A stretch of 63,971 bases of DNA, counting the filler, from Acidimicrobiia bacterium (GTDB taxonomy: Bacteria; Actinomycetota; Acidimicrobiia; Spongiisociales; CAZKJJ01): the NCBI GenBank assembly GCA_046759765.1. It is 4 parts of 4 records of this genome, joined end to end, with 100 filler letters (N's around TTAATTAATTAA, not from the genome) between each part and the next. Parts side by side here need not be neighbours in the genome. Positions count along the whole stretch, not along the records: positions 1 to 18,447 come from JBHICV010000036.1; 3 more parts are not named here. One strand, 5' to 3'. The translations under genes and the position numbers were made by a program. How positions within the stretch are numbered: the first letter of the stretch is position 1; the number at the start of each line of letters is the position of its first letter. The notes beneath the pieces are model-generated. The model was not told the DNA's origin and did not search any database. It saw only the letters and a list, made by a program, of their open reading frames with translations. Below, piece by piece: positions 1-26,340 of the stretch.

Positions 1-629
1 GCCAACAGATCACCCTTCTCCCATGAGCTCTCCCCCCGATTGAAGGACAACTCCACCGATTCTGTTCGACGCCGAACGAACCGCGCCGGCGTGCTCAGTC
101 GGCGCTGAGCAAGGCTGAACAACACCGCGGCAACAGCCGCGAGGATGGCGGCGAGGGATACCGTCAGGGATTGGGCCCAATAGCCGACTACCACCGGGAA
201 GGCTCCCCAAGCCACGGCAAAACCGAGGTCGGTGTGGAGGAGCGGTGACCACTCCAGGGAGTAGGCGGCGGCCATCAAGATCCCCGCTAGTGCCCAGGCC
301 AGCACCCACGGAGAGATGGCGACCGCCCCGATAACGGCAACGATCAAGGAGGAGGCCAGACCACCGACGCCGAAGACGAGCAGTGAGCGGTCGGACACCC
401 TCGTGCCCAACGGCCGGCCGTTGTATTCGTCGAGTGCATGAGCACCGATGCCAAGTCCGAAAAAGAAAGCCGTGACAGTGCCGATCAGCCGCCATCCATC
501 CAGTGTGGTCGCCAGTCCGGCACCGATCGCGACGTACGAAAGGTGCCACAGGGTGTAAGGCAGGTGAAGAATCGCCACGAGGTCGCCTGCCGTCGTGCCG
601 GTAGGAGCGTAATAGGCGGGCCGGGTCAT
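1..629 (-). CDS. Polytopic membrane protein, distantly UbiA-prenyltransferase-like; 3' end runs off the window
   Basis: Manual translation from ATG 629, which overlaps the stop of the methyltransferase (ATGA): MTRPAYYAPTGTTAGDLVAILHLPYTLWHLSYVAIG...GAHALDEYNGRPL. Several hydrophobic helices and no stop before the window edge; absent from the ORF track. Confidence 0.7.
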   Translation of the reverse strand, partial: MTRPAYYAPTGTTAGDLVAILHLPYTLWHLSYVAIGAGLATTLDGWRLIGTVTAFFFGLGIGAHALDEYNGRPLGTRVSDRSLLVFGVGGLASSLIVAVIGAVAISPWVLAWALAGILMAAAYSLEWSPLLHTDLGFAVAWGAFPVVVGYWAQSLTVSLAAILAAVAAVLFSLAQRRLSTPARFVRRRTESVELSFNRGESSWEKGDLL

Positions 630-1318
630 TGCTTCGTGCCCCACATCAGGAGACCGCCTCCCAACGACATCCGTCGGATTCCGATGTCCGTCAGGCCCGA
701 CGCCTGCCAGATGCTGGCCAGAACCTCGGGGGGGTACTCAGCGTGGAATTCATCGATGCTCCGTCCGAGGAACGACCCGACCCGGCCCCAACCGTTGCCG
801 ATCATGGTGCCGGCCATAGGAAGCCCTATCTGCGTGTAGAGCCTCCATGCAACACCAGGCCATCCGGCCGGCCTGCCGAACTCGAGCATGCCGATCCTGC
901 CGCCGGGCTTCACGACCCGAGCGAGCTCGGACATGCAGGAGGCAACGTCTGTGACGTAGCGCAGCAGGTATCCGAAAGCGACCCCGTCGAATGTGTCGCT
1001 ACGAAGCGGAAGCGCCATGCCTGTTGCCAGCACACCGGTGGCTCCCCGGCGAACGGCATGTTGCAACATGTTCTCGCTCTGGTCGACAGAAACCACCTGA
1101 GCGCCTCGCCTGCTGAGCAGACGCGTAATCGAGCCGGTGCCTGCCGCGACGTCGAGAAACCGGGATCCAGGCCTCACATCGAGGCCCCGCACGAGCTCCT
1201 GCCTCCAACGATTGTCTTGAGCCAGGCTGAGGACCTTTGCCCACCTCTCGTAATCCCGTGCGATGGGCGCAAAGAGGCCCAAGGCAACTGACTCCGGCGC
1301 ATCGGCGAGATCGCCCAC
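626..1318 (-). CDS. UbiE/COQ5-family SAM-dependent methyltransferase
   Basis: LDVAAGTG SAM motif, F..IARDYE N-terminus, ELARVVKPGG motif. Confidence 0.85.
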   Translation of the reverse strand: MGDLADAPESVALGLFAPIARDYERWAKVLSLAQDNRWRQELVRGLDVRPGSRFLDVAAGTGSITRLLSRRGAQVVSVDQSENMLQHAVRRGATGVLATGMALPLRSDTFDGVAFGYLLRYVTDVASCMSELARVVKPGGRIGMLEFGRPAGWPGVAWRLYTQIGLPMAGTMIGNGWGRVGSFLGRSIDEFHAEYPPEVLASIWQASGLTDIGIRRMSLGGGLLMWGTKQ

Positions 1319-1345
1319 GCCGTGACAGTACCGATGTTGGAACTC

Positions 1346-1373
1346 TTGACGTGATGGGATGAGCCTCTACAGT
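1346..1373 (+). promoter_or_regulatory. Sigma70-type promoter for the phhA leader
   Basis: TTGACG (1346-1351), 16 nt spacer, TACAGT (1368-1373); the leader ATG follows 9 nt later, so the leader is near-leaderless. Confidence 0.55.
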
Positions 1374-1382
1374 TCTCACTTC

Positions 1383-1454
1383 ATGCAGGTCAGCTACTAC
1401 GCCTATTTCATCTACCGTCTCCCCGGAGCACGGTACGGGGCGATGCTTATGTAG
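1383..1454 (+). CDS. Putative Tyr-rich attenuator leader peptide MQVSYYAYFIYRLPGARYGAMLM
   Basis: 23 codons with 5 Tyr and 1 Phe, lying between the promoter and a terminator upstream of phhA. Confidence 0.75.
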   Translation: MQVSYYAYFIYRLPGARYGAMLM

Positions 1455-1482
1455 CCACCTGCTCAAATCGCACTAACTGGAT

Positions 1483-1515
1483 GACCCGTACCGAACCGTC
1501 GGAACGGGTCTTTTT
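1483..1515 (+). terminator. Intrinsic terminator (attenuator) in the phhA leader
   Basis: GACCCGT-A-CCGA/ACCG loop/TCGG-A-ACGGGTC hairpin followed by TTTTT. Confidence 0.8.
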
Positions 1516-1550
1516 GATGGCCATGTCAACCAGGAAGGAGGTGACGAGAA

Positions 1551-2261
1551 ATGGACCAATTCAGCGACGAGCAGCACCGAACGTGGGCGGAGCTCTACCG
1601 ACGTCAGGTGCCGCGCATAAGAAAGCACGCCTGCGCCGACTACTTAGCAGGCTTCGACATGCTGGAGTTGCCGGCCAGCGAGATACCCTCGGTTGGCTTT
1701 CTCAACTCAAAGATCACCCCTGCCACTGGCTGGAAAGTGATCAGGACCACCGTCCGGTACTCGGATGCAGACCAGTGGTATGAGCACTTCGACCGGAGGG
1801 AGTTCCTCATCACCGACTACATGCGGTCATGGGACGAGCTCGACTGGACTCCGGAGCCCGACATGTTCCACGACATCTTCGGCCATCTGCCTTTCTTGAT
1901 GCTGCCCCACTACACCGCGCTGCAGGAGCTATTCGCGCCGGCCTACTGGAGGGCAACGACCGAAGAGGAGCGAGAGAACATCAAACGGCTGGCATGGTTC
2001 AGCACCGAGTTCGGCGTCATATCCGAGAACGGCTCTCGCAAGATCTTCGGTACCGGTCTCATGTCGGGGGGCGACGAGATGGACAACGTGATGGCGGGCA
2101 ATGTGCCGATCCATCCGTTCACGATCGAGAATGTCTTGGTCCGCAACAAGGCTGTGGACGAGCAGAACAAGGAGCTGTTCGAGTTCTTGTCGATCGAGGA
2201 GCTAGAGAAGGAGCTAAGCCGCTACTTCGACCTGGTGATGAGCGGAGGCGGCGTGTTCTAG
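1551..2261 (+). CDS. phhA: Phenylalanine 4-hydroxylase (pterin-dependent aromatic amino acid hydroxylase)
   Basis: PEPDMFHDIFGHLPFL and WFSTEFG (His-His-Glu iron triad); AAGGAGG RBS. Confidence 0.85.
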   Translation: MDQFSDEQHRTWAELYRRQVPRIRKHACADYLAGFDMLELPASEIPSVGFLNSKITPATGWKVIRTTVRYSDADQWYEHFDRREFLITDYMRSWDELDWTPEPDMFHDIFGHLPFLMLPHYTALQELFAPAYWRATTEEERENIKRLAWFSTEFGVISENGSRKIFGTGLMSGGDEMDNVMAGNVPIHPFTIENVLVRNKAVDEQNKELFEFLSIEELEKELSRYFDLVMSGGGVF

Positions 2262-3029
2262 TCGTCGAGGTCTCCGCGAGCGCGACCTTGTACGAAATCT
2301 ATCGCTTCGAGAGTGGCGTTGTAAACGAAGCGCTCCCGCTTGGGAGAGGCCAGGAACCGTCCCGCCGCAATCAGCGGTGATCGGTCAGCAAGCACCTTTG
2401 ACTCGACGATGGCCGCCCGCGACGTCTTTACCGAGTGGGCGACCATTATCGGCGAGGAGGAGTTGTCCTCGGAGGCTGCCTGCGCGAGAGCTCCGTGGAG
2501 GGCTTCCTCGGGCCCCTCGAAACCGGATATGGCTGCCACCGCTCCGACGGGGTCTCGTCTGCGGATGCTGTCGAGAACGACGCCTGCATCTGCCCGCGGC
2601 GCCGGTGCCGGGTCCGAGGCTCTGTCGGGAGTGTCGAATCGTTGCGTCCACTGAACGAACCAGACGGCGTGAAACAAGTCTCTTAGCACCTCTGGGGAAG
2701 GATCGACGGACCACGCCCAGCGCAGAGCGTCGAGATAGGTCATGGTGTGGGTGACATCGAGCCAGCCCCACTCGTTCGTGTCATCGGTGTCCAGGTCGAT
2801 ATCGAAGCGGCGGAATCTCGTCGCCGCCGCCCGGGAGGTGGCGTTCAGGATCTCCGAAACCGGGACTCCCATGGCTAGCGCGTCCCGCAGAGCCTCGAAA
2901 GCCGACTCAGGGCTTTCGTCCAGGATCGTCCTCTCGAAAAGGGCAGCGTCGAAGCTGCGTCCGTTCTGTCGGCTGAGCTACCTGCTCGGAGACGGCTCCG
3001 AAGACATCTCGTAAAGGATCAGACGCCAT
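2258..3029 (-). CDS. Hypothetical helical protein; 5' region frameshifted or interrupted near 2965-2985
   Basis: The 2258-2872 frame stays open upstream to a TAG near 2980; an ATG at 3029 lies in another frame. Confidence 0.5.
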
Positions 3030-3047
3030 CGGACCTAGGCTGGCCCG

Positions 3048-3554
3048 ATGCCCAACCAATACTCTGCCGCGCCTGAGCTCTCGATTGATACGAGCAAGTC
3101 CTTTTCGGCCACCTTGCACACCAGCGAGGGCGACATTTCGATCGACTTCTATCCGGCCGATGCACCGCAGACGGTGAACAACTTCGTGTTCTTGGCTCGA
3201 GACGGATACTTCGACGACGTGATCTTCCACCGGATCGTCCCCGGCTTCGTGATCCAAGGCGGAGATCCGACCGGGACCGGGTCGGGCGGCCCTGGTTACC
3301 GTTTTGAGGACGAGTTCCACTCCCGAACCAGCTACGACCGGGGAATCGTGGCGATGGCGAACGCGGGGCCGAACACGAACGGCTCCCAGTTCTTCATCTG
3401 CCTGGACGACGTCGGGCTACCGAACCAGTACACGATCTTCGGCGAGGTCACTGACGGGATGGAGGTGGTCGACACCATTGCACGGGCTGACCTCAAGGGT
3501 GAGAAGCCGGTCACGGACATAGTCATCCGCTCGGTAACGATCACGGAGAGCTGA
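3048..3554 (+). CDS. Cyclophilin-type peptidyl-prolyl isomerase
   Basis: FHRIVPGFVIQGGDPTGTGSGGPGY and AMANAGPNTNGSQFFI. Confidence 0.95.
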   Translation: MPNQYSAAPELSIDTSKSFSATLHTSEGDISIDFYPADAPQTVNNFVFLARDGYFDDVIFHRIVPGFVIQGGDPTGTGSGGPGYRFEDEFHSRTSYDRGIVAMANAGPNTNGSQFFICLDDVGLPNQYTIFGEVTDGMEVVDTIARADLKGEKPVTDIVIRSVTITES

Positions 3555-3585
3555 CGGACGACGATCGTCTGGGGGCGGCCGAACC

Positions 3586-4125
3586 TTATGGCTCGGCCGG
3601 TGGTGGAACGGTAACACCGAGCGAGGCGGCCACCTCCTCGAACAGGGGCCTTGCTTCAGGACAGAAGGCATCCAGTAGCGCGGCTCTGTTGGCAGCTACG
3701 GGGTCGAGGTCATCTTCAATAATGGACATACCTTCAAAGAAGCTCTCCCAGTCCTCACGTGGGTTCTGGCATTGGATGAGGGCGATTCCCACGATCTGGT
3801 TCTCGACGATCAACTCGCCCTCCTCATCAAAGACTTCATCATCGATCAGGAGTCTCTCCTCGACTCCGTACGCCGCCGCTAGCTCGAGGTAGCGGGCTTT
3901 CTTCTCTTCCTCAGTGGCGGTAGCCGGGTCGAAGCCGGCCGTCGCGGTCGTAGTCGTGACCGCAGCCGTGGTCGTTGGGGCTACAGGTTCGTCGGCGGGA
4001 GCTTCCGTGGTCGTCTCTGGCTCGGACGGCGTGGCCGGAGGTTGAGTCGGCGGGCTCTCCGATCCGCCGCCGCACGCAGCCGCGGCGACCAGTAGCGCGA
4101 TGGCCACCGCGATTCCCCGTCTCAT
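3586..4125 (-). CDS. Putative lipoprotein
   Basis: MRRGIAVAIALLVAAAA-C lipobox followed by a Pro/Thr-rich linker. Confidence 0.7.
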   Translation of the reverse strand: MRRGIAVAIALLVAAAACGGGSESPPTQPPATPSEPETTTEAPADEPVAPTTTAAVTTTTATAGFDPATATEEEKKARYLELAAAYGVEERLLIDDEVFDEEGELIVENQIVGIALIQCQNPREDWESFFEGMSIIEDDLDPVAANRAALLDAFCPEARPLFEEVAASLGVTVPPPAEP

Positions 4126-4222
4126 CAGTCCCTCCCGTACTGCCACAGTGGAGGGCACCCTAGGAGGTTCGGAATATCCGTGCGCGGGCGCGGGACTAAC
4201 CGGCGGCTCCGTCCCCTGTGCC

Positions 4223-4816
4223 CTAGGGGCAGGTTGCGTCGAGAGTCCCCGGGGTCTCTTCGATCTCGGTGGTCCTCAGGTCGTCGAAGGTGGCGCTGGC
4301 TGTGACGGAGAGGCCCTCGACGACGAGGAATTGCTGCCCAGAGGCCTGGCTGCTGGCCGACCACAGACCCAGGGTTCCATCAGCAAGGTTCTGGTGATCG
4401 ATCGTGTCATAAACCCCCTCGCCCTCGAGGCGTTGTGCTCCGGTGTCGTCGTGGATTTCTGCGATTAGCTGCCAGTCCCCCAGCTTGCCGATGAGGACGA
4501 ACGAGGAGTCCTTGGGCTCGACAGGCGGGAGGGCGCAGAAGTCGACCTTATCGAAGGTCCAGGTCTCGTCCCCGATCGTCAGCGTGGCACTGCCGACGCC
4601 GTCTCCCACAGGCTCCTCACCTGGTTCCTCTGCCGGTCCCTCAGTTGGCGCTTCCGGCTCCTCGGCCGGTTCACTGGGCGTTGCCGGCTCTGTGACCTCA
4701 GGCCTTTCTGTTGTCGCCTGTGGTTGTACTGCGCCCGGAGGCTCGTCTGCGGTGCCTCCGCAAGACGAAGCCAACACGAGCACCACCAACGCCACTGACA
4801 CGGCTCGAAGGTTCAC
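4223..4816 (-). CDS. Putative lipoprotein
   Basis: VNLRAVSVALVVLVLASS-C lipobox followed by a Pro/Glu-rich linker. Confidence 0.7.
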   Translation of the reverse strand: MNLRAVSVALVVLVLASSCGGTADEPPGAVQPQATTERPEVTEPATPSEPAEEPEAPTEGPAEEPGEEPVGDGVGSATLTIGDETWTFDKVDFCALPPVEPKDSSFVLIGKLGDWQLIAEIHDDTGAQRLEGEGVYDTIDHQNLADGTLGLWSASSQASGQQFLVVEGLSVTASATFDDLRTTEIEETPGTLDATCP

Positions 4817-5026
4817 GATCCCCCTCACCTGAATCGGGAGTGTAGGCCGGACGGGCAGGTCAGGTAGATGGCCTTCGTCCATTCTTCCCGTGGATGTGAG
4901 ATACCTCCTCAGCCCAGCGACTGAAGATCGGATAGTGCTTGCCGATCAAATCCCGAATTTCACCTCGCGAGCCGCAACAGCGGACTAAGCCGTGACCTGG
5001 CTCCCTTCGGTCTTACGGATTTGTTG

Positions 5027-5428
5027 CTAGGGACTGGGGTCGCAGATGTCCGACGAGAAATTCCGCCCTACCGCGGTGTGCGTGAGGGTTATGGGCCCTC
5101 CGCTCATAGACCGAATGACGGGAGTGATCAGCGACACACTGTATTGCACTGATACCTCGATGGAACCATCGGGCGGGCAGGTGACGCTGACGTCGGTCGG
5201 TTGGAGGTCCGGCTCCAGGTCCGTGTTGATGCTGTCGAGAACCCGATCCCGCACGATCGTGTGGTCGCCGGGGCTGTAGGAGGCGTAGATAGCCCCCTCT
5301 TGAACTGCATCCCGGACTCGGATGGCCGTGAAGAAGACGCGCCCAAAGTCGACTACCCCGAACACCAGCAGTAATACGAGTGGTGCCGCCAACGCCGTTT
5401 CGACGAGGGATGCTCCTTGCTCTTTCAT
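5027..5428 (-). CDS. TadE/TadG-family minor pilin
   Basis: EQG-ASLVE prepilin motif, hydrophobic helix, AVQEGAIYA. Confidence 0.85.
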   Translation of the reverse strand: MKEQGASLVETALAAPLVLLLVFGVVDFGRVFFTAIRVRDAVQEGAIYASYSPGDHTIVRDRVLDSINTDLEPDLQPTDVSVTCPPDGSIEVSVQYSVSLITPVIRSMSGGPITLTHTAVGRNFSSDICDPSP

Positions 5429-5907
5429 CGGAAGATTGTCCTTCGGTCAGTCGATTGGATCGTGATTGGTCCTCCGACTCCGGCCTGGATGAGGTTGCCG
5501 ACAATGGGTACCGTGACACTGAAGGTCCGCTGTGCTGACACCTCGATCCGATCACCTGCCTCGATGAGGGTGGGATCGAGACTCGGGCCTCCCACTGGGC
5601 AAGTCGCCTTCTGCGCCGTGCCAGGTCCGGCATCGAACGTGACGGTGATGTCGCCTGGCGTGAGGGAGGCATCGAAGCGAAGCGCCGCGGCGCGTATCTG
5701 GTCGCAGTCCGTGAACCGGGGAACCAGGTTCACGCTGTCACCGACCGACGAGCCGTATCGGGCCGCCTCCCTGGTGGCCGTGTTCAGAGCGTTCGACGCT
5801 GCCACGAACCGGGCCAGCTCGGCGATACCGAGGACCAGTACGAGAAACAGAGGGAGCGTTATGGCCAGCTCTACTGCCGTGGCTCCACGGTCGGATCTGC
5901 CGCTCAT
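5425..5907 (-). CDS. TadE-family minor pilin
   Basis: DRG-ATAVELA prepilin motif and ATREAARYG. Confidence 0.85.
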   Translation of the reverse strand: MSGRSDRGATAVELAITLPLFLVLVLGIAELARFVAASNALNTATREAARYGSSVGDSVNLVPRFTDCDQIRAAALRFDASLTPGDITVTFDAGPGTAQKATCPVGGPSLDPTLIEAGDRIEVSAQRTFSVTVPIVGNLIQAGVGGPITIQSTDRRTIFR

Positions 5908-7100
5908 TCGAGCAGGTCCACCTTGAACTCCCCGGGGATGAAACTCGGGTCGCTGACGAGATGGAAGTCCGATCCGTTGAGCCGGAGCCCCAGCCAATGA
6001 TCGACCCAGTCAGCGTTGTGTTGCTTGATCCGCTGAATTCCACGAGCCCGGCCGGGCCCACAACGAGCCCGGTCCAGTCAGAGGTGCTTCCATTCATCCT
6101 GACGGTGAACTTGTCACACCGCTCGATAGGGGGCGGAGCCGGGTCGGCACCTGAGTAGGCCAGCACGTTTGCTAGTCCAGGAGGGGCAACGGGGTAGGGA
6201 TCGAGAGTGTTGACGGAGCTGCCGACGGTGATCGTGCCTTCCGCCACCAGGGTTACACTGGCCACCAAATCCTCGTTGAGATCGATGTTTCCGGTGGCGT
6301 AGTAGAGCCCGTCGCCGTTGGCCGTGATGTACGAACCCGGGATGTCACCCACCACGTAATGCGTTGCCGGCGAGACGGACAGGGCCAAGGTCTTGAATGC
6401 AGCCAGGGTGGTCGGGATGTCGGCGGGCCCGAAGCCGGCCGGCCACTCCTTCAGTGCGACCATGGCTGGAAAACCCGGGTCGTACATGTTGCCGGATCCC
6501 GTCTCGTCGTGGGACACGACGTAGGTGTAGGGATCTTCGGGTATGTTGCCTACGCCTAAATCACTGTTCGAGCCGTTTACTCGCGAGCTGCTGTTGCTGT
6601 GGATGCCGCCGTAGACGGTTTGATTGGAGCCACTCGACTCGAATTGGAGCTTGGCGAACAGATGGCAGTCGTCGCCGCCGGCGAAGATCGCGTTTGAGAA
6701 TCCGGTTCCCCCGGAGCACACGGCGAGCGCGCGAGCATCGACATCGACCTGCTCGAAACCGATTACTCGTGCGAAATGGGTGGTCTGCGAAGTGCCGACT
6801 ATGGCTTCGAACTGATGCCCTCCGAGATCCGTGAGCGTGAGATCCGGGACGGCGAAGCCGTTGCTCTGCACGGAACCCTCTGCCGCCGCAGCAGGGTCAT
6901 CGCCGTGGCAGGACGCCCACGCGGCCGCCAAGGCGGCATGATCGGCCGCGTTCTGAGCTTTGCGCCGCAGGTGGTAGAGCATTCCCCCGTCGAGGGCCAG
7001 GGCTGAGACCCAGTAGCAAGGTGAGTGCGAGAGCGCTCAGGGCGAGCATTGACCCGTTGTCTGAGTGCCACACATGAGCGGCACGTCGCCCGAGCGTCAC
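5904..7100 (-). pseudogene. TadG-like pilus assembly protein with two apparent frameshifts (about 7010 and 5990)
   Basis: DNGSMLAL...ALALDGGMLY...AQNAADHAALAAA is split across frames. Adding one G at 5988-5991 gives a C-terminus that ends in an ATGA overlap with tadE. Confidence 0.7.
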
Positions 7101-7295
7101 CGAGCAGCTCCGTTTCCATCCCTCCCGGGAGCCGCCCGTGCAGGAGTCTGCCTTAAAGTGGCCATAAAACCACTGAGAGTAGCCAGTGAGAACGGGCGCC
7201 TAACAGGCCCGGGAAATGGCTCAAGAGCCCCGTTCATTTACTGGTTCATCGTTTCGCCATCGGCCCGACGCGATGTGAGCTAGATGCATTGGAGA

Positions 7296-8045
7296 TCAGG
7301 GCCGCGGTGCGGGCGTTCCTCGACATCCTTCGCAGTCCTCCCAGGTGAGGGTCTGGCGTATCTGCTCGAGCTGCCGTTCCGCTTCGTTTCGGTCGAGCAG
7401 ACCGAGCAGATTGCCGGTAGGAGCGGTGATGAGGATGGTCGCGACGTTGCGTTCTCTCATTCGTCGCACCAGTGGCTCGAGTGGTTCGTCAGGTCGTTTC
7501 GTGGTCGGTCCGAGCTGCATCGCTTCGATGGCGAGTCCATCTGAGTCGCGGACTGCGTCTCGGAAGCGGATCAGGCCGAGTACGCACCGGTGATCGTCGG
7601 TGACCACGCATTGATCCCAGCCCGCAGCTTCAGCTCTGGCTCTGACCTCAGACAGCCGTTCGGTTGGGAGACATGTGGGCACCTCTGCCTGGGTCAGGTC
7701 GCCGGCGCGTAGGGTCTGCGCCTTTGTGCCTTCGACCGGTAGTGCGTGGGCCAGCCAGTCGGCTTTGCCGCCCCGGTAGTCGTAGATATGTTCGAATCCG
7801 AACTGTTCGAGCAGGCACGCTGCTCGTGGAGAAAGATCTCACAGGCCGTCGTGTCAGTAGACGACCACTGGTCGGTCCCGACGCAACCCTGACGCAGCTT
7901 CTCTGGTCAGCTTCTTGAGCGGGATATTGATTGCCCCGGGAAGGTGCAACTCTTCGAACTCCGGGGCTGGCAGCACATCCACCAACTGGGCCTCGTTCTT
8001 ATCCATCAAGGCTTTGAGTTCGTTCCGTTCGATCACTTCGAACAT
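7296..8045 (-). CDS. Rhodanese + CBS-pair protein with two in-frame TGA codons (candidate selenoprotein, 249 aa)
   Basis: ORFs 7854-8045 and 7296-7682 share a frame. The bridge reads VVVY*HDGL*DLSPRAACLLEQFGFEHIYDYRGGKADW, completing a rhodanese domain. AGGAGG RBS. Confidence 0.8.
7808..7826 (-). promoter_or_regulatory. Candidate bacterial SECIS hairpin
   Basis: Perfect 7-bp stem CGAGCAG/CTGCTCG with a CGUGC loop, starting 12 nt after the second UGA. Confidence 0.6.
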
Positions 8046-8061
8046 CTTCTTCTACCTCCTC

Positions 8062-8934
8062 TCATAAGACGAGCCGACTCGCCATGTCCGCGAACGCTCC
8101 TAGAACAATGAACCAGACTCCGACTCCGATCAGGACTCGACCGCCCCAGCGTCTCACTGCTGGACCGCTCGTACGGAAGGCTTGGACGGTCGACTGCTTG
8201 GCGAGTACCGCGAACATCGCGGCTATGAAGAACAGACCGACGATCACCAGCGCCGCCGTCCCGAATGTGAGCAGCCCAGCGGGAACGCTGCCAATGACCA
8301 CGCCTTGAGCCGCCAGACCTGCCAGCAGGGGGCCGGTACAGCCAAACCCGGCAAGCAGATATCCGAAGCCGTAAGCGACATGACGGGAAAACGAGTCGCG
8401 ATCTCGGAAGGCGGCGTGCCGCCGTTCAATCGGGGCAGCTAATCCAGCGATTCTTCCGAAGGGCACGCGAAGGAACCCAAGCTGAGCTAGACCCAAAACG
8501 ACGAGTAGCACGCCCACAACGACCCGCACAGCCCGTCCTGGACCAGCGGTGAAAGTCAGCTGGCTGGCTATCTGCGCTCCGGCAGCCGTCAGCAAGACTC
8601 CGAGCCCCAGGACGAATAGAGAGGCTCCTATGGCCGCGCCAGTAGCAAAACGAACCGCCGAACGAAGCCGTCCCCCGGTTTGAATTCGCTGCTCGACCTG
8701 ACGACCGAGAAGGGTCAGCAGAAGCGGAAACGAACAAGGCGAAAAGAAGGCTGCGAAACCTGCTGCGGCGGCGAGAACAAGAAGACCAAGGCCGGTCCCT
8801 GCCCCGACGTCGAAGGTCGGGTAAAGCCGGAACCCCATGTATCCGGCCAGACCGATACCAACGGTGCCGACCGTGAGCAACAACATTCGTGCTCGCAATC
8901 GCCGGTTCGCTAGGCGCGAACGCTCCAAGGTCAT
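8062..8934 (-). CDS. CcdA/DsbD-transmembrane-like disulfide relay membrane protein
   Basis: FFSPCSFPLL and GFGCTGP paired Cys motifs in hydrophobic helices; ATGA overlap with the merB-like stop. Confidence 0.8.
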   Translation of the reverse strand: MTLERSRLANRRLRARMLLLTVGTVGIGLAGYMGFRLYPTFDVGAGTGLGLLVLAAAAGFAAFFSPCSFPLLLTLLGRQVEQRIQTGGRLRSAVRFATGAAIGASLFVLGLGVLLTAAGAQIASQLTFTAGPGRAVRVVVGVLLVVLGLAQLGFLRVPFGRIAGLAAPIERRHAAFRDRDSFSRHVAYGFGYLLAGFGCTGPLLAGLAAQGVVIGSVPAGLLTFGTAALVIVGLFFIAAMFAVLAKQSTVQAFRTSGPAVRRWGGRVLIGVGVWFIVLGAFADMASRLVL

Positions 8935-9562
8935 TCGGGACGGCGCCGTGGCGACGACATTTCCAGTAGTGATGCCCACCAGCCGGAACAGGCTTCAGCC
9001 ACTGTTGCGATGTCAGCGATCTCACCGGTGGCTCCGGTGTGCGCAGCCCACGCCTCTGCGCTTCGGCGGTCGGTAAAGAAGTTGACGGTCGGGCACCACC
9101 GTTCGACAACGAAACAGTCGTCACCGGCATCACCCGCCACGAAGACAACAGCTTCCGTCTCATCCGCGGTCCCTTCAGTGAAGGTGAGACCTAGCGGCCT
9201 ACCGGAATGGATGTCTCGCGAGCGGACATCGCCGCTTGCTTCGAGTTCATTCATGATCCCAACTGCGTCAACCGCGCACCATGTCCATCGATCCCACCAT
9301 CCGTGACGATCTCGTGCGACGTCGGAGCGACGCTCAATCCTGCACTTCCGGTAATCCTTCGCGAGTCGTCTTTCGTCAGTCTTCCCTGGTACTGGATTGT
9401 CCCCAGCTCGTCCCTAACCTCGGTTAGGGAGAGACCTGAGGCAGCGGCGATTTCCTCCTCTGAAACAGGCCGTCCGGTTTCCAGAAGCAGCCGGAACGAC
9501 CGCGCCCTCACCAGAGAATCCGAAGGTGCCACTGGAATTAGATCCCGAGTGGGCTCCGTCAT
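8931..9562 (-). CDS. merB: Organomercurial lyase MerB-like protein, one apparent frameshift at 9293-9295
   Basis: GLSVAPTSHEI, then (after adding one G) RWTWCAVDAVGI and WCPTVNFF; the catalytic Cys/Asp/Cys pattern is retained. Confidence 0.7.
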
Positions 9563-9852
9563 GGGACACCTAGTGCTTCGCGAAGCTGATCGATCGACGG
9601 CGTACCCTCGGAACCGGACTCGGTGCGGTAGACGCGGCACGCGAAGCCGATCGGTGCCGACTCGTCCGCGAACGGGTCCCGCCCGTCGACCAGCACAGTC
9701 GGTGAGCCGCGGAAACCAAGACGCTCCGCATCCTCAAAGGATTCCACCAGCTGGTAATGGATCTCCCAGTCGTCACCCAGGATCTGGCGAAGGCGACTCT
9801 GGGCAATTTTCCAATTGGCGCAGCCGTTGAAATACTGCAACGTCACATCCAT
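9559..9852 (-). CDS. Small thioredoxin-fold protein of the type found next to merB (DF/DUF2703-like)
   Basis: YFNGCANW, FRGSPTVLVDGRDPF and ACRVY. Confidence 0.75.
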   Translation of the reverse strand: MDVTLQYFNGCANWKIAQSRLRQILGDDWEIHYQLVESFEDAERLGFRGSPTVLVDGRDPFADESAPIGFACRVYRTESGSEGTPSIDQLREALGVP

Positions 9853-9882
9853 CGGGCACTCGCAACTCCGAGAACCCTGCTA

Positions 9883-9913
9883 CCGTATACCTTCCAGCAT
9901 ACTGGAAGGTCAA
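9883..9913 (-). promoter_or_regulatory. MerR-family operator/promoter
   Basis: Perfect dyad ACCTTCCAG-N4-CTGGAAGGT (9889-9910), lying between minus-strand TTGACC and TACGGT with a 20-nt spacer. Confidence 0.85.
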
Positions 9914-9925
9914 GGAGAAACTTTC

Positions 9926-10327
9926 GTGCAAATCGGACAACTAGCCGCCATAACCGGAGTGCCTACCAAAACCATCCGCTACTACGAGGACATCGGAGTG
10001 CTACCTACTCCCGATCGCACGCCTTCGGGATACCGCGACTACGACGAAGCCGCGTCCGACCGTCTGCTCTTTGTGCGTGGCGCACAAAGAGCAGGACTCA
10101 CCCTGAACGAGGTCCGCAGCATCTTCGAGGTGAGAGACGAAGGCCAAGCCCCTTGCGGGCACGTCGCTGATCTCATCAATAAGAAGCTCGAAGAGATCGA
10201 CCAACGGATAACAGCGCTACACCGGACGAGAAAGGAACTCGAAGTCCTCGCCGACCGAGCCAACACCCTCGACTACGGGGCCTGCGGACCGGAATCGATC
10301 TGCCAGATAATCATCCCAAGCCAATGA
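9926..10327 (+). CDS. MerR-family heavy-metal-responsive regulator
   Basis: IGQLA...TIRYYEDIG...R..SGYRDY; Cys in APCGHV and a C-terminal CGPESIC. Confidence 0.92.
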   Translation: MQIGQLAAITGVPTKTIRYYEDIGVLPTPDRTPSGYRDYDEAASDRLLFVRGAQRAGLTLNEVRSIFEVRDEGQAPCGHVADLINKKLEEIDQRITALHRTRKELEVLADRANTLDYGACGPESICQIIIPSQ

Positions 10328-10387
10328 GTCGTTCATCACCACAAATCTGGCCAACTATGTAGCAGCACTCCAGCCAAGAAATCAGAA

Positions 10388-11104
10388 ATGGCAACAGCAA
10401 GACCAACAGCAGCGGATACTGCGGAGGCGTGGCGGGAACGCGTCGTGAGAGAGCATGAGACTATCCAGGAAGACCCCACCGCCCCGCTGGCGCAGGTTTA
10501 CCTGCTGGAGGAACTCGCGAAAGGCCAGCCTGTCTCACCAGAACGGGCAGCTGAGCTACTTGGAGTTTCCCGCGAGGAGATTGACGAGCTGTTCTCGGCG
10601 ATCGAGGCGGCTGGCGGACAGATCAACGGCCAAGGCGACTTCATCGGCATGGCTCTCACCCTCAAACCGACCCGGCACAGCATTCGGGTCAACGACAACG
10701 ACATGTACGCATGGTGCTCCCTAGACACCATCCTTTTACCCGGGGTTCTCGAGGCCGAGGCTGAGATCGAATCAACCGATCCGATCACCGGCGAGACCAT
10801 CCAGTTGACGGTCAACGCTGATCAGATAGTCAAGGTGGATCCGCCAGGTGCAGTGACGTCTATCTTCGTGCCGGGAAGGACCCCCACCGAGACCGGTGAT
10901 GACGAGCTGGTGGCCGGTGCCGAATCGGAGGTATGCACCTCGATGCTGTTCTATGCGTCGCGAAAGAATGCAGAGAAAGCACTAGCGAACTACTCCAATA
11001 TTGCGATCTTCACGGTCGAAGAGGCATTCAACCTCGCCCGCGCAACGTGGACCGAACCCACGCGAGCTCTCCGAAAGCAAGCGGTCGCCAGCGACCAACG
11101 GTGA
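10388..11104 (+). CDS. merB: Organomercurial lyase MerB-like protein (second copy)
   Basis: LTLKPTRH, YAWCSLDT, STDPITGETI and VCTSMLFY. Confidence 0.8.
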   Translation: MATARPTAADTAEAWRERVVREHETIQEDPTAPLAQVYLLEELAKGQPVSPERAAELLGVSREEIDELFSAIEAAGGQINGQGDFIGMALTLKPTRHSIRVNDNDMYAWCSLDTILLPGVLEAEAEIESTDPITGETIQLTVNADQIVKVDPPGAVTSIFVPGRTPTETGDDELVAGAESEVCTSMLFYASRKNAEKALANYSNIAIFTVEEAFNLARATWTEPTRALRKQAVASDQR

Positions 11105-11187
11105 CCGCCATCGATCATGAGGCTACGGTTGGCAACCCTTGACTCTAGGCCTGAGGGCGTCATGTACTGCTGTGCCAGCTCGGAGAG

Positions 11188-12421
11188 CTAACCGGGTGGA
11201 AGATCTCCTTTGACGGGGGAAGTTATCGAGGCCGGCCATGGGGGTAGGCCGCTGGTGGTGTATCGGTGTCCGAGTCGGCTGGTCGAGAGGTAGTCGCCGT
11301 TGGGGAGGCGGCGGTAGGTCCAGCCGCATCGGTGTCTGATGATGTGGTGGTGTCGGCATCCCGGCGCCAGATCCTCGACCGCGGTTTTCCCGCTTTCCGC
11401 CCAGGGGATCCGATGGTCCAGGTCACATTCGGTGGCCGGCATCCGACATCCGGGGAACACACAGGTCCGGTCCCGGGCTTCAACCGCCCGACGCTGCGCG
11501 CCGGTGGGCCGCCGGCGAGTAGTGCCATTGAATAGCGCCCGGCCGCTCTCGGGATCGGTGACCGTCCACCGCCACTCCGCCCCCTATTGCTGTTGGACGA
11601 TGACTTGGCGGGCTATGTCAGAAATGACCGGCCCGTAGCCGGCCAGCTCCCCCGGCCGCTCCGCCAAACCGGCCAGCGTCTCCAGATCGGTCTGGATGTC
11701 GACTGTTCCCCGAGACGACATGCCGCGATGAGTCTTGCCTTGCAGTAAGTCCAGGAAGATGGTGGATCCGCTTCGATGTCTGCGCCACCCCATCCGGCGG
11801 CAGATCCAACCCCAACAGGTTGGCCGTACTCGAGGGGGTGGGCTCCGCCACCACCCGCCGGCCCTTCACCGCCTCCTCGTAACGGGCTTCCGCCTCCTCG
11901 GGATCAGCTTCCACACACAGACGCCGGATCCGACCCCACAACTCCCCAGTAGTCAACAGGGGAGCGTCCTCAATGATCTGTTCCACCACCTCCCGGGCGG
12001 TATCTTCCGGCAGATGTTCAGTGCCCCGGACAATCACCCACACCCGAGATATATCAATATCACCATCAGACAGCGCCTCCCAAACCCGCGGTAGACGCTC
12101 ACACAGCTCCAACGCCAAACCCAACGCGTTATCAGCGGCCCGGCGAGTCAGGCGAAGAGCAGTCCGAAGCTCCGCTGACGACGCCAACGGAGCGAACTCC
12201 GGATCGTCATCCAGCGCATTCATGAAATCCCACAACGCGGCCATCACCTGGAACACCAGCGCCTCGTAATGAGAAGCCATCCGCCGGGCCGCCTTCAACA
12301 CCACAATCAGGTCGGAACCAGATAGATCATCGACGTCGATCTCCGACAGGACCGCACCCAAAGCGGCGCCCGGATCCATCTCATCCAAACCCTCGTGAAC
12401 CGACTCAAATTCATAGAACAT
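11188..12421 (-). pseudogene. DUF222-HNH endonuclease (REP13E12-like), disrupted
   Basis: DUF222-like N-terminus and RDRTCVFPGC...DLDH...GCRHHH HNH; frame break near 11760 and an in-frame TAG at 11584-11586. Confidence 0.8.
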
Positions 12422-12450
12422 ACGTTCGATCATATCGGAGGGATGGGACA
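12414..12450 (-). promoter_or_regulatory. LexA SOS box plus RecA-ND/PafBC-like promoter
   Basis: TCGAAC-GTAT-GTTCTA (12414-12429) and TGTCCC-N10-TATGAT (12450-12429), 7 nt before ATG 12421. Confidence 0.65.
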
Positions 12451-12973
12451 CCAACACCCCGAACAGACCCCTCTCGCAACGGCGGACGGTGACGCCAACC
12501 AGGAACCATCGAGACCGACACGACTCTCCGGTCTCTGTCCAAAACAGCTGACAGCCGCCTAGGCAGTCAGGTTTTCCTCGGGTGTCCGAAATAGGTCGGC
12601 CGTCCCATTCACCCATAGCCGGAGGAGCATGAGACTGGTGACTGTCAGCGGCCTCCCATCCGCTGAGGGGAGGTTGATAGGGGGTCGCTCCCCTCAGCGA
12701 CCTTTTTACAAGTGGACACCCGACCTAGCGGAGGAGCCGCCAGTCTCACGAGAGAGGGCGGCTCCTTTGCAAAACATTCACGTCAAGTGCTCACTCAGCA
12801 TCTTGACAGCTAGGCGTCTTGTCAGTTGGGCCCACGCGCCCGCTGCCGTGACCACAAGAGAGTGCAGGACCAGTCAACCCTGTTGCTTGCAATTTTCGAT
12901 GCCCGCCAGCTTCGTCGGTGAGCAACCGACGCCGACTCCCCTAATGCTGATTAGTTTCAGCCCGGAGACGATC

Positions 12974-15613
12974 GTGCCCAACCCGTCAACCCAAACGGTC
13001 ACGTTTCTGTTCACAGACATCGAGGGATCCACCCGGCTCGTGTTGAGATTGGGAGAGCGGTATCCAGAGGTGCTGGAGGATCACCACCGCCTCATACGTG
13101 ACGCGCTCACCGAAGTCGGCGGTATGGAAATGGGTACTGCCGGCGACGCTGTGTTTGCGTCATTCGAGGCCCCAGACTGGGCGCTGCAGGCGGCAGTTCA
13201 GGCGCAACGCTCGCTCGCCTCCCACCGCTGGCCGGAAGGTGGGGCCATCCGGGTACGGATGGGACTGCACACGGGCGAGGCGATCCTTGGCCCTACGGGA
13301 TACACGGGCCTCGCCGTCCATGCGACGGCTCGGATAGCAGACGCCGGACACGGCGGCCAGATTCTGATGTCCGAGGCGACCCATTCTGTGATCGGCTACC
13401 CGCTTCCTGCTGGAGTCTCGGTCAGGGATTTGGGCGAGTACCACCTCAAGGACCTGCCGGAACCCGAGCACCTCTACCAGATTGAAGTCCCCGACCTTCC
13501 CGGCGAGTTCGCGCCACTCCGGGCTCTCGATGCTCGCCCCAACAACCTTCCCAGCGAGCTCTCCGAGTTCATCGGGCGCGAGGAAGAGCTCGAGGCCGTA
13601 TCGGGACTCTTGGCTTCCAACCGATTGGTAACGCTCACGGGCCCCGGTGGCAGTGGAAAGACACGCCTGGCCCTTCGAGCCGCCCGCGATTCTCTGCCCC
13701 AGTTTTCCAACGGAGTGTTCTTCGTGCCGCTGGAAGCGATCACGGACCCGGACACACTTGCTCCGGCAGTAGTTCAGGCGTTGGAAATCAAAGACACGTC
13801 CGACCGCCCGAGGATCGAGGTACTTGAGGAGAAGCTGCGCGATCGCGAGCTTCTGGTCGTGCTTGACAATTTCGAGCACGTACTTCCCGCTGCGGTAACT
13901 GTGAGCCGTTTGCTGGAGGTGGCGCCACACCTTAAAGCGTTGGTCACGAGCCGGGTGACGCTTGGCCTCCGGGCCGAGCAATCGTACGAAGTGCCACCGC
14001 TTTCGCTTCCCGATTCGAAGGTCAGCAGCGACCACGAGGCAATGGCCCAAGTGGACAGCGTGGCTCTCTTTGTCCGTCGATCTCAGGCTGTCCAGCCGGA
14101 CTTCGGTCTGACTCCCGACAACGCCGAGTCAGTTGCTCGGATCGTCTCTCGGCTAGACGGCCTTCCTCTCGCTCTCGAGCTCGCCGCCGCGAGAACCCGT
14201 GAGTTCGCCCCTCCGGAGCTGGCCAGTCGTTTGGAGCGCAGCCTGGACACGCTCGTCGGGGGCCACGCTGACCTACCCCAACGGCAGCGAACTCTCCGGG
14301 ATGCCATCGCGTGGAGCTACGACCTTCTTGCAGACGAAGAGCAAGCAGTCTTCGGGGAACTCGGCATCTTTGCGGGAGGGTTCACGCTCGGCGCGGCTGA
14401 ACAGGTAGTAGCTGGGGCCTCGGCGATGATCGTCGAGAGCGTGGCTTCTTTGCTGGACAAGAGCATGCTCAGCCGGAGGGTTCACCTGGGCGAGACACGA
14501 TTCGCCATGCTCGAAACGCTTCGGGAGTTCGCCCTCGAGGAACTGGCGGAGAGTGGAAAACAGGAGGTCGCCGAGCGGTACAACGCCTACTTTCTTTCTC
14601 TGGCCGAGGAGGCGGAGCCGGAGCTAGCCGGTGAAGCCCAAGGGATCTGGATGGCGCGCCTGTTGGCCGAAAGAGACAACCTGCGTGCTGTGCTTCGCTA
14701 CTCGAAGGAAATGGACGATCCGGATACCGGACTTCAACTCGGCGCCGCGGTTTGGCGCTACTGGCATGGATCTGGGCAACTGGTCGAAGGTAAGGAGTGG
14801 CTGGAGGGATTTCTCAACCACCCGAGGGCTTCTGCGATGGCCCGCGCCAAGGGCTTGACTGCACTGGCGGGGTTGGCCTACTGGCAGGCGGACTTTGCGC
14901 AGGCTACTCAGACGTACCGGCAGGCCCTCGATCTCTATCGAGCCAGCGGCGATCGCTTCAGGGAGGCTGACACACTGTACGGCATGAGCCTGACCGCATC
15001 GTTCGAAGGCGACCCTGACGCCGGGGAGCGTCTTGCTCACGAGGCCAAGGAGATATTCGAAGAGCTGGAATCCAGAGAACAAGTGGGCCAGGTTCTCATG
15101 GCAGAAGCCACCGCTCATTGGACAAGAGGCGATCTGTCGAGGGCGCAGGCGTTATTCGAGCGTGCTCTAGATATCTCGCTGGAGTTGGGAAACAGCTCAC
15201 TTGCCGCTTCGCAGATGGTCGGCCTGGCAGGTCTGTTGTTCCAGGGCGGCGATGTGCGCAGCGCTCAGGAAACCGCAGCCGCGGCTTTGGGCATGGCCAT
15301 CGAAGTCAAGAACGCGCACATTCAGGTATTTGCGCTCGACGGAGTCGCCTCCTTCGCCGCACCCGCCACGCCCGCTGGAGCAGTGCGACTAGCCGGAGCT
15401 GCCGACTCCCTCCGTGAGGCTCAGGGTGGCGGATGGTCACTCGACTCGTTCGGAATCGAGAATGCTCGAGTTTCGGTGGCTGAGCTCCTCCCGGACGATG
15501 ACATCGAACGCGCGTGGGAGGAGGGAAGGGGGATGAGCCTCGAGGAGGCAATCGACTACGCGCGCCGGCTTGTCCCCACTAAGGATGTCAGCCATGCCCG
15601 CGAGCCGACTTGA
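12974..15613 (+). CDS. Class III cyclase domain + P-loop ATPase (STAND/NB-ARC-like) + TPR protein
   Basis: TFLFTDIEGST, RVRMGLHTG, GPGGSGKT, LDNFEH, RLDGLPLALELAAAR. The start is placed at GTG 12974 because the upstream extension looks non-coding. Confidence 0.88.
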   Translation: MPNPSTQTVTFLFTDIEGSTRLVLRLGERYPEVLEDHHRLIRDALTEVGGMEMGTAGDAVFASFEAPDWALQAAVQAQRSLASHRWPEGGAIRVRMGLHTGEAILGPTGYTGLAVHATARIADAGHGGQILMSEATHSVIGYPLPAGVSVRDLGEYHLKDLPEPEHLYQIEVPDLPGEFAPLRALDARPNNLPSELSEFIGREEELEAVSGLLASNRLVTLTGPGGSGKTRLALRAARDSLPQFSNGVFFVPLEAITDPDTLAPAVVQALEIKDTSDRPRIEVLEEKLRDRELLVVLDNFEHVLPAAVTVSRLLEVAPHLKALVTSRVTLGLRAEQSYEVPPLSLPDSKVSSDHEAMAQVDSVALFVRRSQAVQPDFGLTPDNAESVARIVSRLDGLPLALELAAARTREFAPPELASRLERSLDTLVGGHADLPQRQRTLRDAIAWSYDLLADEEQAVFGELGIFAGGFTLGAAEQVVAGASAMIVESVASLLDKSMLSRRVHLGETRFAMLETLREFALEELAESGKQEVAERYNAYFLSLAEEAEPELAGEAQGIWMARLLAERDNLRAVLRYSKEMDDPDTGLQLGAAVWRYWHGSGQLVEGKEWLEGFLNHPRASAMARAKGLTALAGLAYWQADFAQATQTYRQALDLYRASGDRFREADTLYGMSLTASFEGDPDAGERLAHEAKEIFEELESREQVGQVLMAEATAHWTRGDLSRAQALFERALDISLELGNSSLAASQMVGLAGLLFQGGDVRSAQETAAAALGMAIEVKNAHIQVFALDGVASFAAPATPAGAVRLAGAADSLREAQGGGWSLDSFGIENARVSVAELLPDDDIERAWEEGRGMSLEEAIDYARRLVPTKDVSHAREPT

Positions 15614-15690
15614 CCTACGGATCGAGCCCTGGTCGGCTCAGGAGATCTGCGTCGGCGTCAAGGCGCTCTGAACTCTCGAACCGGTATCAA

Positions 15691-16086
15691 CTACTGCGTG
15701 AATGACCAGTGCGCATGCACGGTCTTCCAGCCCTCCTCCGTATGACGGTAGATCTCGGTGGCGTTCCACCGGTCCACGACCTCGCTAGCTCCCTCCTCGG
15801 TCTCATAGGTGACGAGGTTGAAGGTCAAGATCGCCGTGTCGCCATGGACATCAACGCTCGGGTTGATCATCTCGTAGCGCTGGACCGGGATCTGCCCGGT
15901 GAAAGAAGCCAGGTTCTTTTGAACGTCCGGGCCGTCGATCCTCTGCGGAAGCCCAGGCGCGAAGTAGGTGGCGTCCGTCGTGAACTTCTCGCTATAAGGC
16001 ACTGAATCACTCTCGTACCAGCGGTCCAGGACCGCGCGCTCGAGCGCCATCACCTTTTCGGTCACAGAAGCGTTGTCTCCGGTCAT
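15691..16086 (-). CDS. NTF2/SnoaL-like (DUF4440) protein
   Basis: Size of 131 aa and C-terminal W.ATEIY....GWKTVHAHWS. Confidence 0.75.
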   Translation of the reverse strand: MTGDNASVTEKVMALERAVLDRWYESDSVPYSEKFTTDATYFAPGLPQRIDGPDVQKNLASFTGQIPVQRYEMINPSVDVHGDTAILTFNLVTYETEEGASEVVDRWNATEIYRHTEEGWKTVHAHWSFTQ

Positions 16087-16508
16087 GTGGGCCTCCTCAG
16101 CAAGCGACTATCGCAACCATCGACCCTAGCGAGCAGGTCCCTGCCGCTCACCGTCGGTGTCGTCGCTAGGGACGCGACTGGCCGTGACTTGAGGTCTTGC
16201 GTGTCGGGAAGGCCGACGCGAACCTGAGCCCACGGAGCGCCCCGGCTGGCCAGTTCCTGCGAGCCGGGTGATTTTGCGATGTCAATCTGCGTGACGTCCC
16301 GCCCACTTCACGGTTCCGGTCGGACGGCGTTCCGAGGTGCCGCCTCGGCCGACGTTGGGAGCGTTTCCAACATGTGGAAGGCATTTCCCTCTTTTCGAAG
16401 TGACTAGTCAACTGGGGCACGTCCGGAATCCTGCTCAGGCAGCCGATGGATTGGTCGATATCACAGGAAATTGGCGAAAAGCGCCATCCGCATCAAAAGG
16501 AACGACCA

Positions 16509-17132: not shown

Positions 17133-17158
17133 CAACCCAGCCACCAACAACACATGAG

Positions 17159-17200
17159 AGAACCGGGGCGAGCGTGGGAGCGGCTCGCTCCGGTTCTTTT
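17159..17200 (+). terminator. Intrinsic terminator after the tasA-like gene
   Basis: AGAACCGGGGCGAGC/GCTCGCTCCGGTTCT stem followed by a T-run. Confidence 0.7.
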
Positions 17201-17215
17201 GAGAAGAGCTAAGGA

Positions 17216-20394: not shown

Positions 20395-20409
20395 GAGCGA
20401 GGAGAACCC

Positions 20410-26326: not shown

Positions 26327-26340
26327 TTCCTCGGACCGTA

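Follow-up and report, generated by a model that had tools for sequence, protein, structure and literature searches.

A gene in a 63,971-nucleotide stretch of DNA from an Acidimicrobiia bacterium (GenBank assembly GCA_046759765.1; the whole stretch is hereafter called the window) very probably encodes a rhodanese-like protein with two selenocysteine (Sec) residues five residues apart, its rhodanese domain being followed by a pair of CBS domains. Read on the minus strand from ATG 8045 to TGA 7298-7296 with UGA translated as U, the gene is a single frame of 249 residues plus the terminal stop, in which U occupies residues 64 (codon 7856-7854) and 69 (codon 7841-7839) and there is no further interruption or frameshift; the active-site stretch reads RPVVVY-U-HDGL-U-DLSPRAACLLEQFGF...YRGGKADW. 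A preliminary description of the window had given this frame, both UGA positions and the U-HDGL-U loop, all of which translation reproduced. It had also proposed that both UGA codons specify Sec, a claim that comparison with related genes strongly supports for codon 69 and makes likely, but less certain, for codon 64, because UGA at codon 64 is present in only three of the 80 best related loci (all of them with intact frames). The gene lies on the first (positions 1-18447) of four pieces that were joined artificially through three spacers (N44-TTAATTAATTAA-N44, at 18448-18547, 36627-36726 and 54664-54763), so that gene order across the spacers is meaningless; the G+C content of the window is 62.4%.

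Domain structure of the predicted selenoprotein

The product would be cytoplasmic, with a single rhodanese domain joined to a CBS pair. Pfam Rhodanese (PF00581) matches residues 8-99 with 67 bits (cut-off 22.2), and Pfam CBS (PF00571) matches with 27.8 bits (cut-off 24). An AlphaFold model computed with a first alignment (A1) has a mean predicted local distance difference test (pLDDT) score of 93.3 and a predicted template modelling score of 0.82, and consists around the active site of a strand (residues 60-63), a loop (64-70) and a helix (71-81), the catalytic residue opening the loop after the central strand. The best matches of the model in the PDB are rhodaneses, the first being BH2092 (3nhv; root-mean-square deviation 1.1 A over 107 columns, 28% identity), and its second half matches the CBS pairs of MgtE, AcuB and ST2348 (E ~1e-8). 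Pfam, alignment and model agree with the preliminary description in placing the first UGA at the position of the rhodanese catalytic Cys and in finding the rhodanese domain, the CBS pair and a C-terminal CxxC motif intact.

The C-terminal motif reads WEDCEGCRG and falls within the last 20 residues, which are of low confidence in the model (block-mean pLDDT 76 and 53), suggesting that the tail is probably flexible. The motif W-x-D-C-x-x-C-[PR]-G (7305-7340, minus strand, in the window) is limited to an Acidimicrobiia clade that also includes the genes at loci L001, L002, L004, L006 and L010 and the protein P0002. Of 81 aligned homologues, 75 have a gap there; in the model the motif lies on the low-confidence tail.

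Cysteine and UGA at the two positions in homologues

Protein homologues were collected at E <= 1e-3 (n = 85, best identity 50%). In the 81 aligned full-length sequences, site 64 is Cys in 80 and Ser in one, and site 69 is Cys in 76, Trp in four and a gap in one; the family loop motif around both sites is VVYC[WYH]DxLCDLSPRAA. The corresponding codons were read in the best 80 of 551 tblastn-confirmed relatives in GTDB species-representative genomes, a set outside which the window's own genome lies. Codon 69 is TGA in 73 of these loci and TGC in seven (L018, L025, L047, L053, L061, L063 and L067); codon 64 is TGA in three (L004 of Acidimicrobiia; L022 and L024 of Chloroflexota), and TGC or TGT in the others. 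Both positions are thus almost always occupied by Cys in the proteins and by Cys or UGA codons in the genes, as the preliminary description had anticipated. The four genes with both UGA codons (that of the window, L004, L022 and L024) have full-length open frames with intact rhodanese and CBS regions and no other stop.

The hosts, mainly metagenome-assembled genomes (MAGs), belong to Actinomycetota (Acidimicrobiia, Rubrobacter, Thermoleophilia, Gaiellales), Chloroflexota, Dormibacterota and Rokubacteria, and UGA at codon 69 recurs across four or more phyla; cultured Streptomyces and Micromonospora are among the hosts of the Cys forms. Sec users exist within Actinobacteria and Chloroflexi, among them Rubrobacter xylanophilus with five selenoproteins, according to the literature (PMC1794560). 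In a quick tree, L004 groups as the sister of the single-Sec L010 (support 97); the tree requires three changes of the double-Sec label, of which well-supported branches force only one.

A non-Cys residue such as Trp at the two sites had been named in the preliminary description as evidence to the contrary. Trp is found at site 69 only, in four proteins that all come from JGI gene calls; one of these (P0003) is 86% identical to the product of the gene at L008, which has TGA at that codon, so that its Trp is probably the gene caller's translation. The four Trp residues speak for an explanation in which the UGA codons are read as Trp, Cys or Gly, through local read-through or an altered code and without Sec, which is very hard to credit. 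Ordinary stops in the window are most often TGA, which closes 36 of 65 long open reading frames (ORFs) including the rhodanese-CBS gene itself, and genome-wide reassignment of TGA is therefore excluded; moreover, near-cognate read-through would leave unexplained a hairpin conserved only in the TGA forms (described below). A scan of the window for other selenoprotein genes, sought as ORFs bridged by TGA with high G+C content at third codon positions on both sides, returned 32 candidates, which resemble ordinary gene junctions or antisense frames.

Truncated annotation of the family

The UGA at codon 69 has left its mark on protein databases. P0082-P0084 are C-terminal fragments, each starting at LSPRAA (residue 71), and P0085 (153 aa) ends ...VVVYCHDSL, immediately before codon 69; fragments that end or start here are the pattern expected if a gene caller stops at a TGA at codon 69. 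In P0085, which comes from a 1182-base contig, a fragment of a pyridine-nucleotide-disulfide oxidoreductase runs straight into the rhodanese N-terminus, which may reflect fusion, frameshift or chimerism. A search for shorter proteins gave 251 matches; among the 120 listed, 110 have ...YCxDxx as their last residues, codon 69 being the next, one (the window's own fragment) ends ...VVVY, and nine are other pieces. Public protein sets store the relatives as a 'rhodanese-related sulfurtransferase' of 67-68 residues and a separate CBS fragment, and one fragment of 67 residues stands at NCBI as a rhodanese-like domain-containing protein. The rhodanese-CBS family is large and systematically mis-annotated, and it is tied by gene neighbourhood to mercury resistance (see below). 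If the present reading is true, gene callers and curated libraries alike have missed the parent C-x4-U rhodanese-CBS family (73 of 80 loci, at least 110 truncated protein clusters), and mending the split annotation would give the Actinomycetota, Chloroflexota and Dormibacterota of soils and the subsurface a further selenoprotein family of considerable size.

A conserved hairpin downstream of the UGA codons

A perfect 7-bp hairpin with a CGUGC loop, which the preliminary description had put forward as resembling a selenocysteine insertion sequence (SECIS), is present at 7826-7808 in both the minimum free energy (MFE) and the centroid folds. Its stem begins 12 nucleotides (nt) past UGA69 and 27 nt past UGA64, and its first loop base stands 19 nt from UGA69 and 34 nt (34-35) from UGA64, the spacings that had been proposed. 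Because the folding energy is by itself unremarkable (z-score -1.15 over 83 nt and -2.06 over 46 nt), the significance of the hairpin rests on comparative data. These were drawn from a second alignment (A2) of codons 63-85 in 71 TGA forms (70 loci and the window); three TGA loci that were found later and left out of A2 also carry the stem.

The family segment CGRGCCGC-GUG-GCGGCUCG is nearly invariant in A2. The eight proposed pairs are formed in 96.5% of 568 cells, versus 26-58% when the 3' partners are slid by one to three columns. The only change on both sides of a pair is the window's own compensatory replacement of C-G by A-U at columns 39/47. A stronger signal than covariation comes from synonymous codons, which are frozen inside the stem (A75 GCC in 70 of 71, A76 GCG in 70 of 71, R78 CGG in 69 of 69, L79 CTC in 69 of 70) and vary outside it (six codons for S72, the commonest in 42 of 71; the commonest codon of L82 in 40 of 60, of G83 in 32 of 70 and of V87 in 34 of 68). 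With the structure fixed, the median free energy is -13.1 kcal/mol in the 71 TGA forms, which range from -14.0 to -10.1 with the window at -10.1, and -5.4 kcal/mol in the seven TGC forms, most of which have lost the hairpin. Pairing, frozen codons and the compensatory change together uphold the hairpin as a SECIS-like element. Rfam finds no family match in 7700-7950 even at E <= 10 and only two tRNAs in the whole window.

The constraints given for bacterial SECIS elements in the legend to Fig. 2 of a 2026 review (PMC13188914) are a loop of 3-9 nt, a stem of 4-16 bp, a G in the first two loop positions, a distance of 16-37 nt from the UGA and an MFE of -7.5 or lower; the window hairpin falls within them for both UGA codons (7-bp stem, CGUGC loop, -10.1 kcal/mol, 19 and 34 nt). 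Counted from the U of UGA69 (position 1), the G and U of the loop are at 24 and 25; in the Escherichia coli SECIS, as described in PMC8659212, they are G23 and U24, and the upper stem-loop is 11 nt from the UGA.

Proposed decoding of the two UGA codons

It is probable that the rhodanese-CBS gene is a live selenoprotein gene in which both UGA codons specify Sec, most likely through one hairpin. By comparative criteria Sec at codon 69 is nearly certain. UGA69 would be recoded through the hairpin at 7826-7808, which has the geometry of a bacterial SECIS, and UGA64, at the canonical catalytic-Cys position, is likely to be decoded as Sec too, most likely by the same hairpin 27 nt away, with SelB and Sec-tRNA presumably serving both codons. 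The sharing of one hairpin is proposed because no second conserved structure exists: no structure besides it is common to all four double forms, L024 having a different 6-bp stem around UGA69. A candidate for a second SECIS that would serve UGA64, a 4-bp mini-hairpin (GAGA-N4-UCUC) that includes UGA69, was rejected; it occurs in the window, L004 and L022 and also in the single forms L010, L032 and L078, and in the window the consensus G is missing from its loop.

Several observations weigh against this reading. UGA at codon 64 is known from four genes altogether. Covariation is thin, with one double-sided change in 568 cells, a scarcity explained by the near-invariance of the stem and by its overlap with the conserved residues PRAAxRLE. 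Two of the Cys forms, L053 and L063, still fold at -10.7 and -11.1 kcal/mol, and the contrast set comprises only seven sequences. Spacing like that of E. coli holds for UGA69 only, UGA64 being 15 nt further away and near the top of the 16-37 nt range. Finally, the 64-kb window yielded neither a SelA, SelB or SelD domain nor a tRNA-Sec, and the flanks of the 80 related loci (~1.02 Mb) yielded no tRNA-Sec either.

Some of these points would fit an explanation in which only UGA69 encodes Sec, and TGA64 is a true stop (the result of recent nonsense mutation or assembly error, or a variant within the population) that leaves a 63-residue fragment or a gene in the course of being lost. The conserved hairpin is canonically placed for UGA69 alone (12 versus 27 nt), TGA64 is rare (3 of 80 loci), the window's own fragment is the only one among the 120 short proteins listed that ends at codon 63, and errors or decay evidently happen here, the window being MAG-like and a neighbouring merB-like gene being broken in its frame. 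This explanation is nevertheless unlikely: TGA64 occurs in four separate assemblies, which represent two phyla, and each time it stands in the catalytic-Cys column, is accompanied by TGA69 and sits in a frame that is otherwise intact; the window hairpin keeps its pairing through a compensatory change; UGA64 is inside the bacterial SECIS range; and rhodaneses with two Sec residues (UxU and UxxxxU) have already been reported.

A dead pseudogene, in which two unrelated nonsense mutations have struck a Cys-type rhodanese-CBS gene, would account for two premature stops under the standard code and for the lack of Sec machinery within the window. It is extremely improbable, since both stops are TGA and both fall on conserved Cys columns, 73 of 80 relatives have TGA69 and the conserved hairpin, and the gene has a strong ribosome-binding site and no frameshift or extra stop in its 249 codons. 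The preliminary description had likewise argued that two independent nonsense changes, both to TGA at likely Cys sites, would be improbable.

With both UGA codons decoded as Sec, the active-site loop U-H-D-G-L-U would replace the C-x4-U or C-x4-C that is usual in the family, and the paired selenols might form a redox-active or metal-binding site. The double-UGA forms would then be a natural test of the reach of a bacterial SECIS and of its reuse within five codons.

Gene neighbourhood and possible function

The genes around the rhodanese-CBS gene (Table 1) suggest a possible connection with mercury. In the order of the minus strand they are genes for a DF family protein, a split MerB-like protein, a CcdA/DsbD-like membrane protein and the rhodanese-CBS protein, with genes for a MerR-family regulator and an intact MerB-like protein divergent on the plus strand; the MerR-family gene and both MerB-like genes (the split one included) are all within 3.3 kb, and their NCBIfam MerB and MerR scores are below the cut-offs. 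The CcdA/DsbD-type protein has no match in Pfam or NCBIfam; in the ESM Atlas its best scores are 0.94-0.95 and 27 of 30 matches are DsbD_2 or DsbD_TM clusters, and it resembles (BLASTP, E = 1e-4) an ORF at L055 that is itself a weak match to DsbD_2. In the broken MerB-like gene, the N-terminal part ends at TGA 9253-9251, and the frame of the C-terminal part (with WTWCAVD and CPTVNFF) continues open beyond its first ATG (9254) on the upstream side, where the catalytic WTWCAVD lies; a one-base break of the frame falls near 9290-9310, and the gene is either a pseudogene or an assembly error. No match of the MerR-family regulator to an NCBIfam model (CadR-PbrR, MerR and others) reaches the cut-off of that model.

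Table 1. Positions of the rhodanese-CBS gene, its proposed signals and the adjacent genes in the window
Feature	Position	Strand	Basis or remark
Rhodanese and CBS-pair coding sequence, 249 residues, with in-frame UGA at codons 64 and 69 and C-terminal CxxC (C237, C240)	7296..8045	-	Translation, Pfam, AlphaFold model
UGA codon 64, catalytic-Cys position directly after strand VVVY, proposed Sec	7854..7856	-	Cys column in homologues; TGA in L004, L022, L024
UGA codon 69, proposed Sec, five residues past the catalytic position and at the site where the family usually has Sec	7839..7841	-	Cys column; TGA in 73 of 80 loci
Bacterial SECIS-like hairpin CGAGCAG-CGUGC-CUGCUCG, loop G at position 2, then U	7808..7826	-	MFE and centroid folds, family alignment A2
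Ribosome-binding site GAGGAGG, 9 nt before ATG 8045, abutting the TGA of the upstream gene (8064-8062)	8055..8061	-	Read from the sequence
Terminator-like hairpin and T-run, ~107 nt past the stop codon	7170..7189	-	Consensus scan; pattern match only
CcdA/DsbD-type membrane protein, motifs FFSPCSFPLL and GFGCTGPLL, start codon uncertain	8062..8979	-	ORF, ESM Atlas; ends 16 nt upstream of ATG 8045
MerB-like organomercurial lyase gene in two reading frames	8931..9640	-	N-terminal part: MerB models and MerB helix-turn-helix; C-terminal part: Pfam MerB 1.9e-11
DF family (seleno)protein, Cys form (GCANW, GSPTVLVDG), first gene of the minus-strand cluster	9559..9852	-	NCBIfam NF049942 63.2 bits, below cut-off 70
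MerR-family metal-responsive regulator, true start probably downstream of 9815	9815..10327	+	Pfam MerR, MerR_1, MerR-DNA-bind
Second, intact MerB-like gene (AWCSLDT)	10388..11104	+	Pfam MerB 3.3e-23; NCBIfam MerB 148 and 140.6 bits, below cut-offs 193 and 200

Neighbours of the relatives were counted in 77 of the 80 related loci, many of which are on short contigs. MerA-like proteins are encoded near 14, seven of them within 2 kb, and of eight candidate ORFs tested, five (L022, L026, L029, L034 and L044) are above the NCBIfam cut-off for MerA, two (L019 and L045) are below it and one (L075) is another enzyme. MerB is encoded near seven loci, MerR-family proteins near nine, DUF3179 proteins near eight and DsbD-like proteins near four. 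Each double-Sec gene has a mer-type gene nearby: merR and merB in the window, merB at L004, merA at L022 and merR at L024. DF-family genes neighbour 11 loci and are directly upstream in eight (L001, L002, L003, L006, L009, L010, L012 and L076); this small thioredoxin-like protein (NF049942) is the most regular neighbour, and all copies inspected are Cys forms (GCPNW ... GSPTV ... ACR). The DUF3179 genes are near the rhodanese-CBS gene at L004, L010, L019, L027, L029, L038, L044 and L055, and the copies at L004 and L029 are complete ORFs that require no TGA. DUF3179 is listed among the families with selenoprotein members in the 2026 review, which also lists other putative Sec-containing mercury or metal proteins (PMC13188914).

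Because of the MerR, MerB and CcdA-like neighbours in the window and the MerA or MerB encoded beside relatives, the preferred function, put forward tentatively, is the handling by ligand exchange of Hg(II), including Hg derived from organomercurials, which the rhodanese-CBS protein may pass between a membrane carrier or MerB and a reductase. A plain role as a selenol/thiol oxidoreductase, with the DF-family and DsbD-like proteins as partners, is nearly as likely. Detracting from a role in mercury handling are the absence of merA from the window's contig piece, the frame break in one of its two merB copies, the absence of mer genes from most of the related loci, and the nature of the link, which is one of gene neighbourhood alone. 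A Sec or Sec-Sec loop beside merA, merB and merR would suggest that selenium chemistry has been recruited for mercury handling. That the most far-reaching combination of these proposals holds in full, namely one SECIS serving two UGA codons, a diselenol loop that acts, under control of a MerR-type regulator, in the detoxification of mercury or organomercury, and a widespread sixth form of Sec-rhodanese, is doubtful.

Other features of the window

A tRNA-Trp gene (57085-57163, plus strand) with the standard CCA anticodon, which does not read UGA, lies upstream of nusG and the genes for ribosomal proteins L1, L10 and L7-L12, a normal bacterial arrangement. In piece 2, an ordinary suf cluster for iron-sulfur assembly (18566-30652) includes two genes of SufBD type along with genes for ABC ATPases, a class-V aminotransferase and a NifU-like protein of 298 aa, in which the NifU_N domain covers residues 155-281 only. 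A WD40-repeat protein of 646 residues (52636-54576, minus strand) matches 40 Pfam beta-propeller families.

Comparison with known systems

Searches of the literature found no report that joins selenocysteine or a selenoprotein with a CBS domain, a coverage outside which Haft & Tolstoy 2025 and any supplements lie; the deep-Sep paper makes no mention of rhodanese or CBS. Nothing useful was found on two UGA codons sharing one SECIS, and nothing relevant, among the papers listed, on a link between rhodanese and merA, merB or the mer operon. No NCBIfam model reaches its cut-off on the window protein.

BH2092 of Bacillus halodurans (3nhv, 3o3w), the nearest structural match, has the loop YCWGPAC with the same C-x4-C spacing, aligned to the YCwDalC of the family. 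This structural-genomics rhodanese lacks Sec and, in the solved constructs, a CBS pair; as its function is not known, it offers a fold without a mechanism.

Mercury resistance systems hand off Hg(II) through pairs of Cys residues, as in the C-terminal Cys pair of MerA and the transfer from MerB to MerA. The rhodanese-CBS protein may work in a like manner, with a paired soft-ligand site in a mobile loop, a CxxC tail and merA, merB and merR as neighbours; the likeness is one of analogy, the protein having no homology to MerP/NmerA or MerA.

That rhodaneses may contain Sec, which the preliminary description took as established, is borne out by the literature, including forms with two Sec residues: the UxU rhodanese of Olavius symbionts, described in 2007, is a precedent for a second Sec (PMC1976440), and a UxxxxU form is tabulated in the 2026 review (PMC13188914). 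That review counts 119 prokaryotic selenoprotein families, among them five rhodanese forms: UxxS, UxxG, CxU, UxxG and TsoB. Forms 1-4 (the CxU form being LYCAU, NF041203) and the Olavius UxU protein resemble the rhodanese-CBS family in having Sec in or near the active-site loop, but the usual Sec of the family is at +5 (C-x4-U), outside the five motifs listed in the review, and the family has a CBS pair. The window protein scores 33.5 bits against LYCAU (cut-off 115) and 36.1 bits against GlpE (cut-off 102).

The closest parallel is TsoB (NF045694), the 'rhodanese-like form 5', a rhodanese/DsbD fusion with two Sec residues in a UxxxxU motif (Table 1 of PMC13188914, there after Haft & Tolstoy 2025). 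According to that table entry, TsoB shares with the window protein a rhodanese with two Sec residues as U-x4-U (here U64-HDGL-U69) and a DsbD-type association. It differs in being fused to DsbD, whereas the window protein has 249 residues with a CBS pair, and its DsbD/CcdA-like protein is encoded by a separate upstream gene. Among the longer homologues no DsbD-fused form was found, the matches being tandem-rhodanese proteins and one run-on into an LLM oxidoreductase. Against the TsoB model the window protein scores 34.7 bits (cut-off 805), no better than against the generic rhodaneses GlpE and MoeB. A U-x4-U rhodanese selenoprotein has thus already been catalogued as TsoB, and the window protein repeats its motif and its DsbD-type association; it belongs neither to TsoB nor to any other listed form of Sec-rhodanese.

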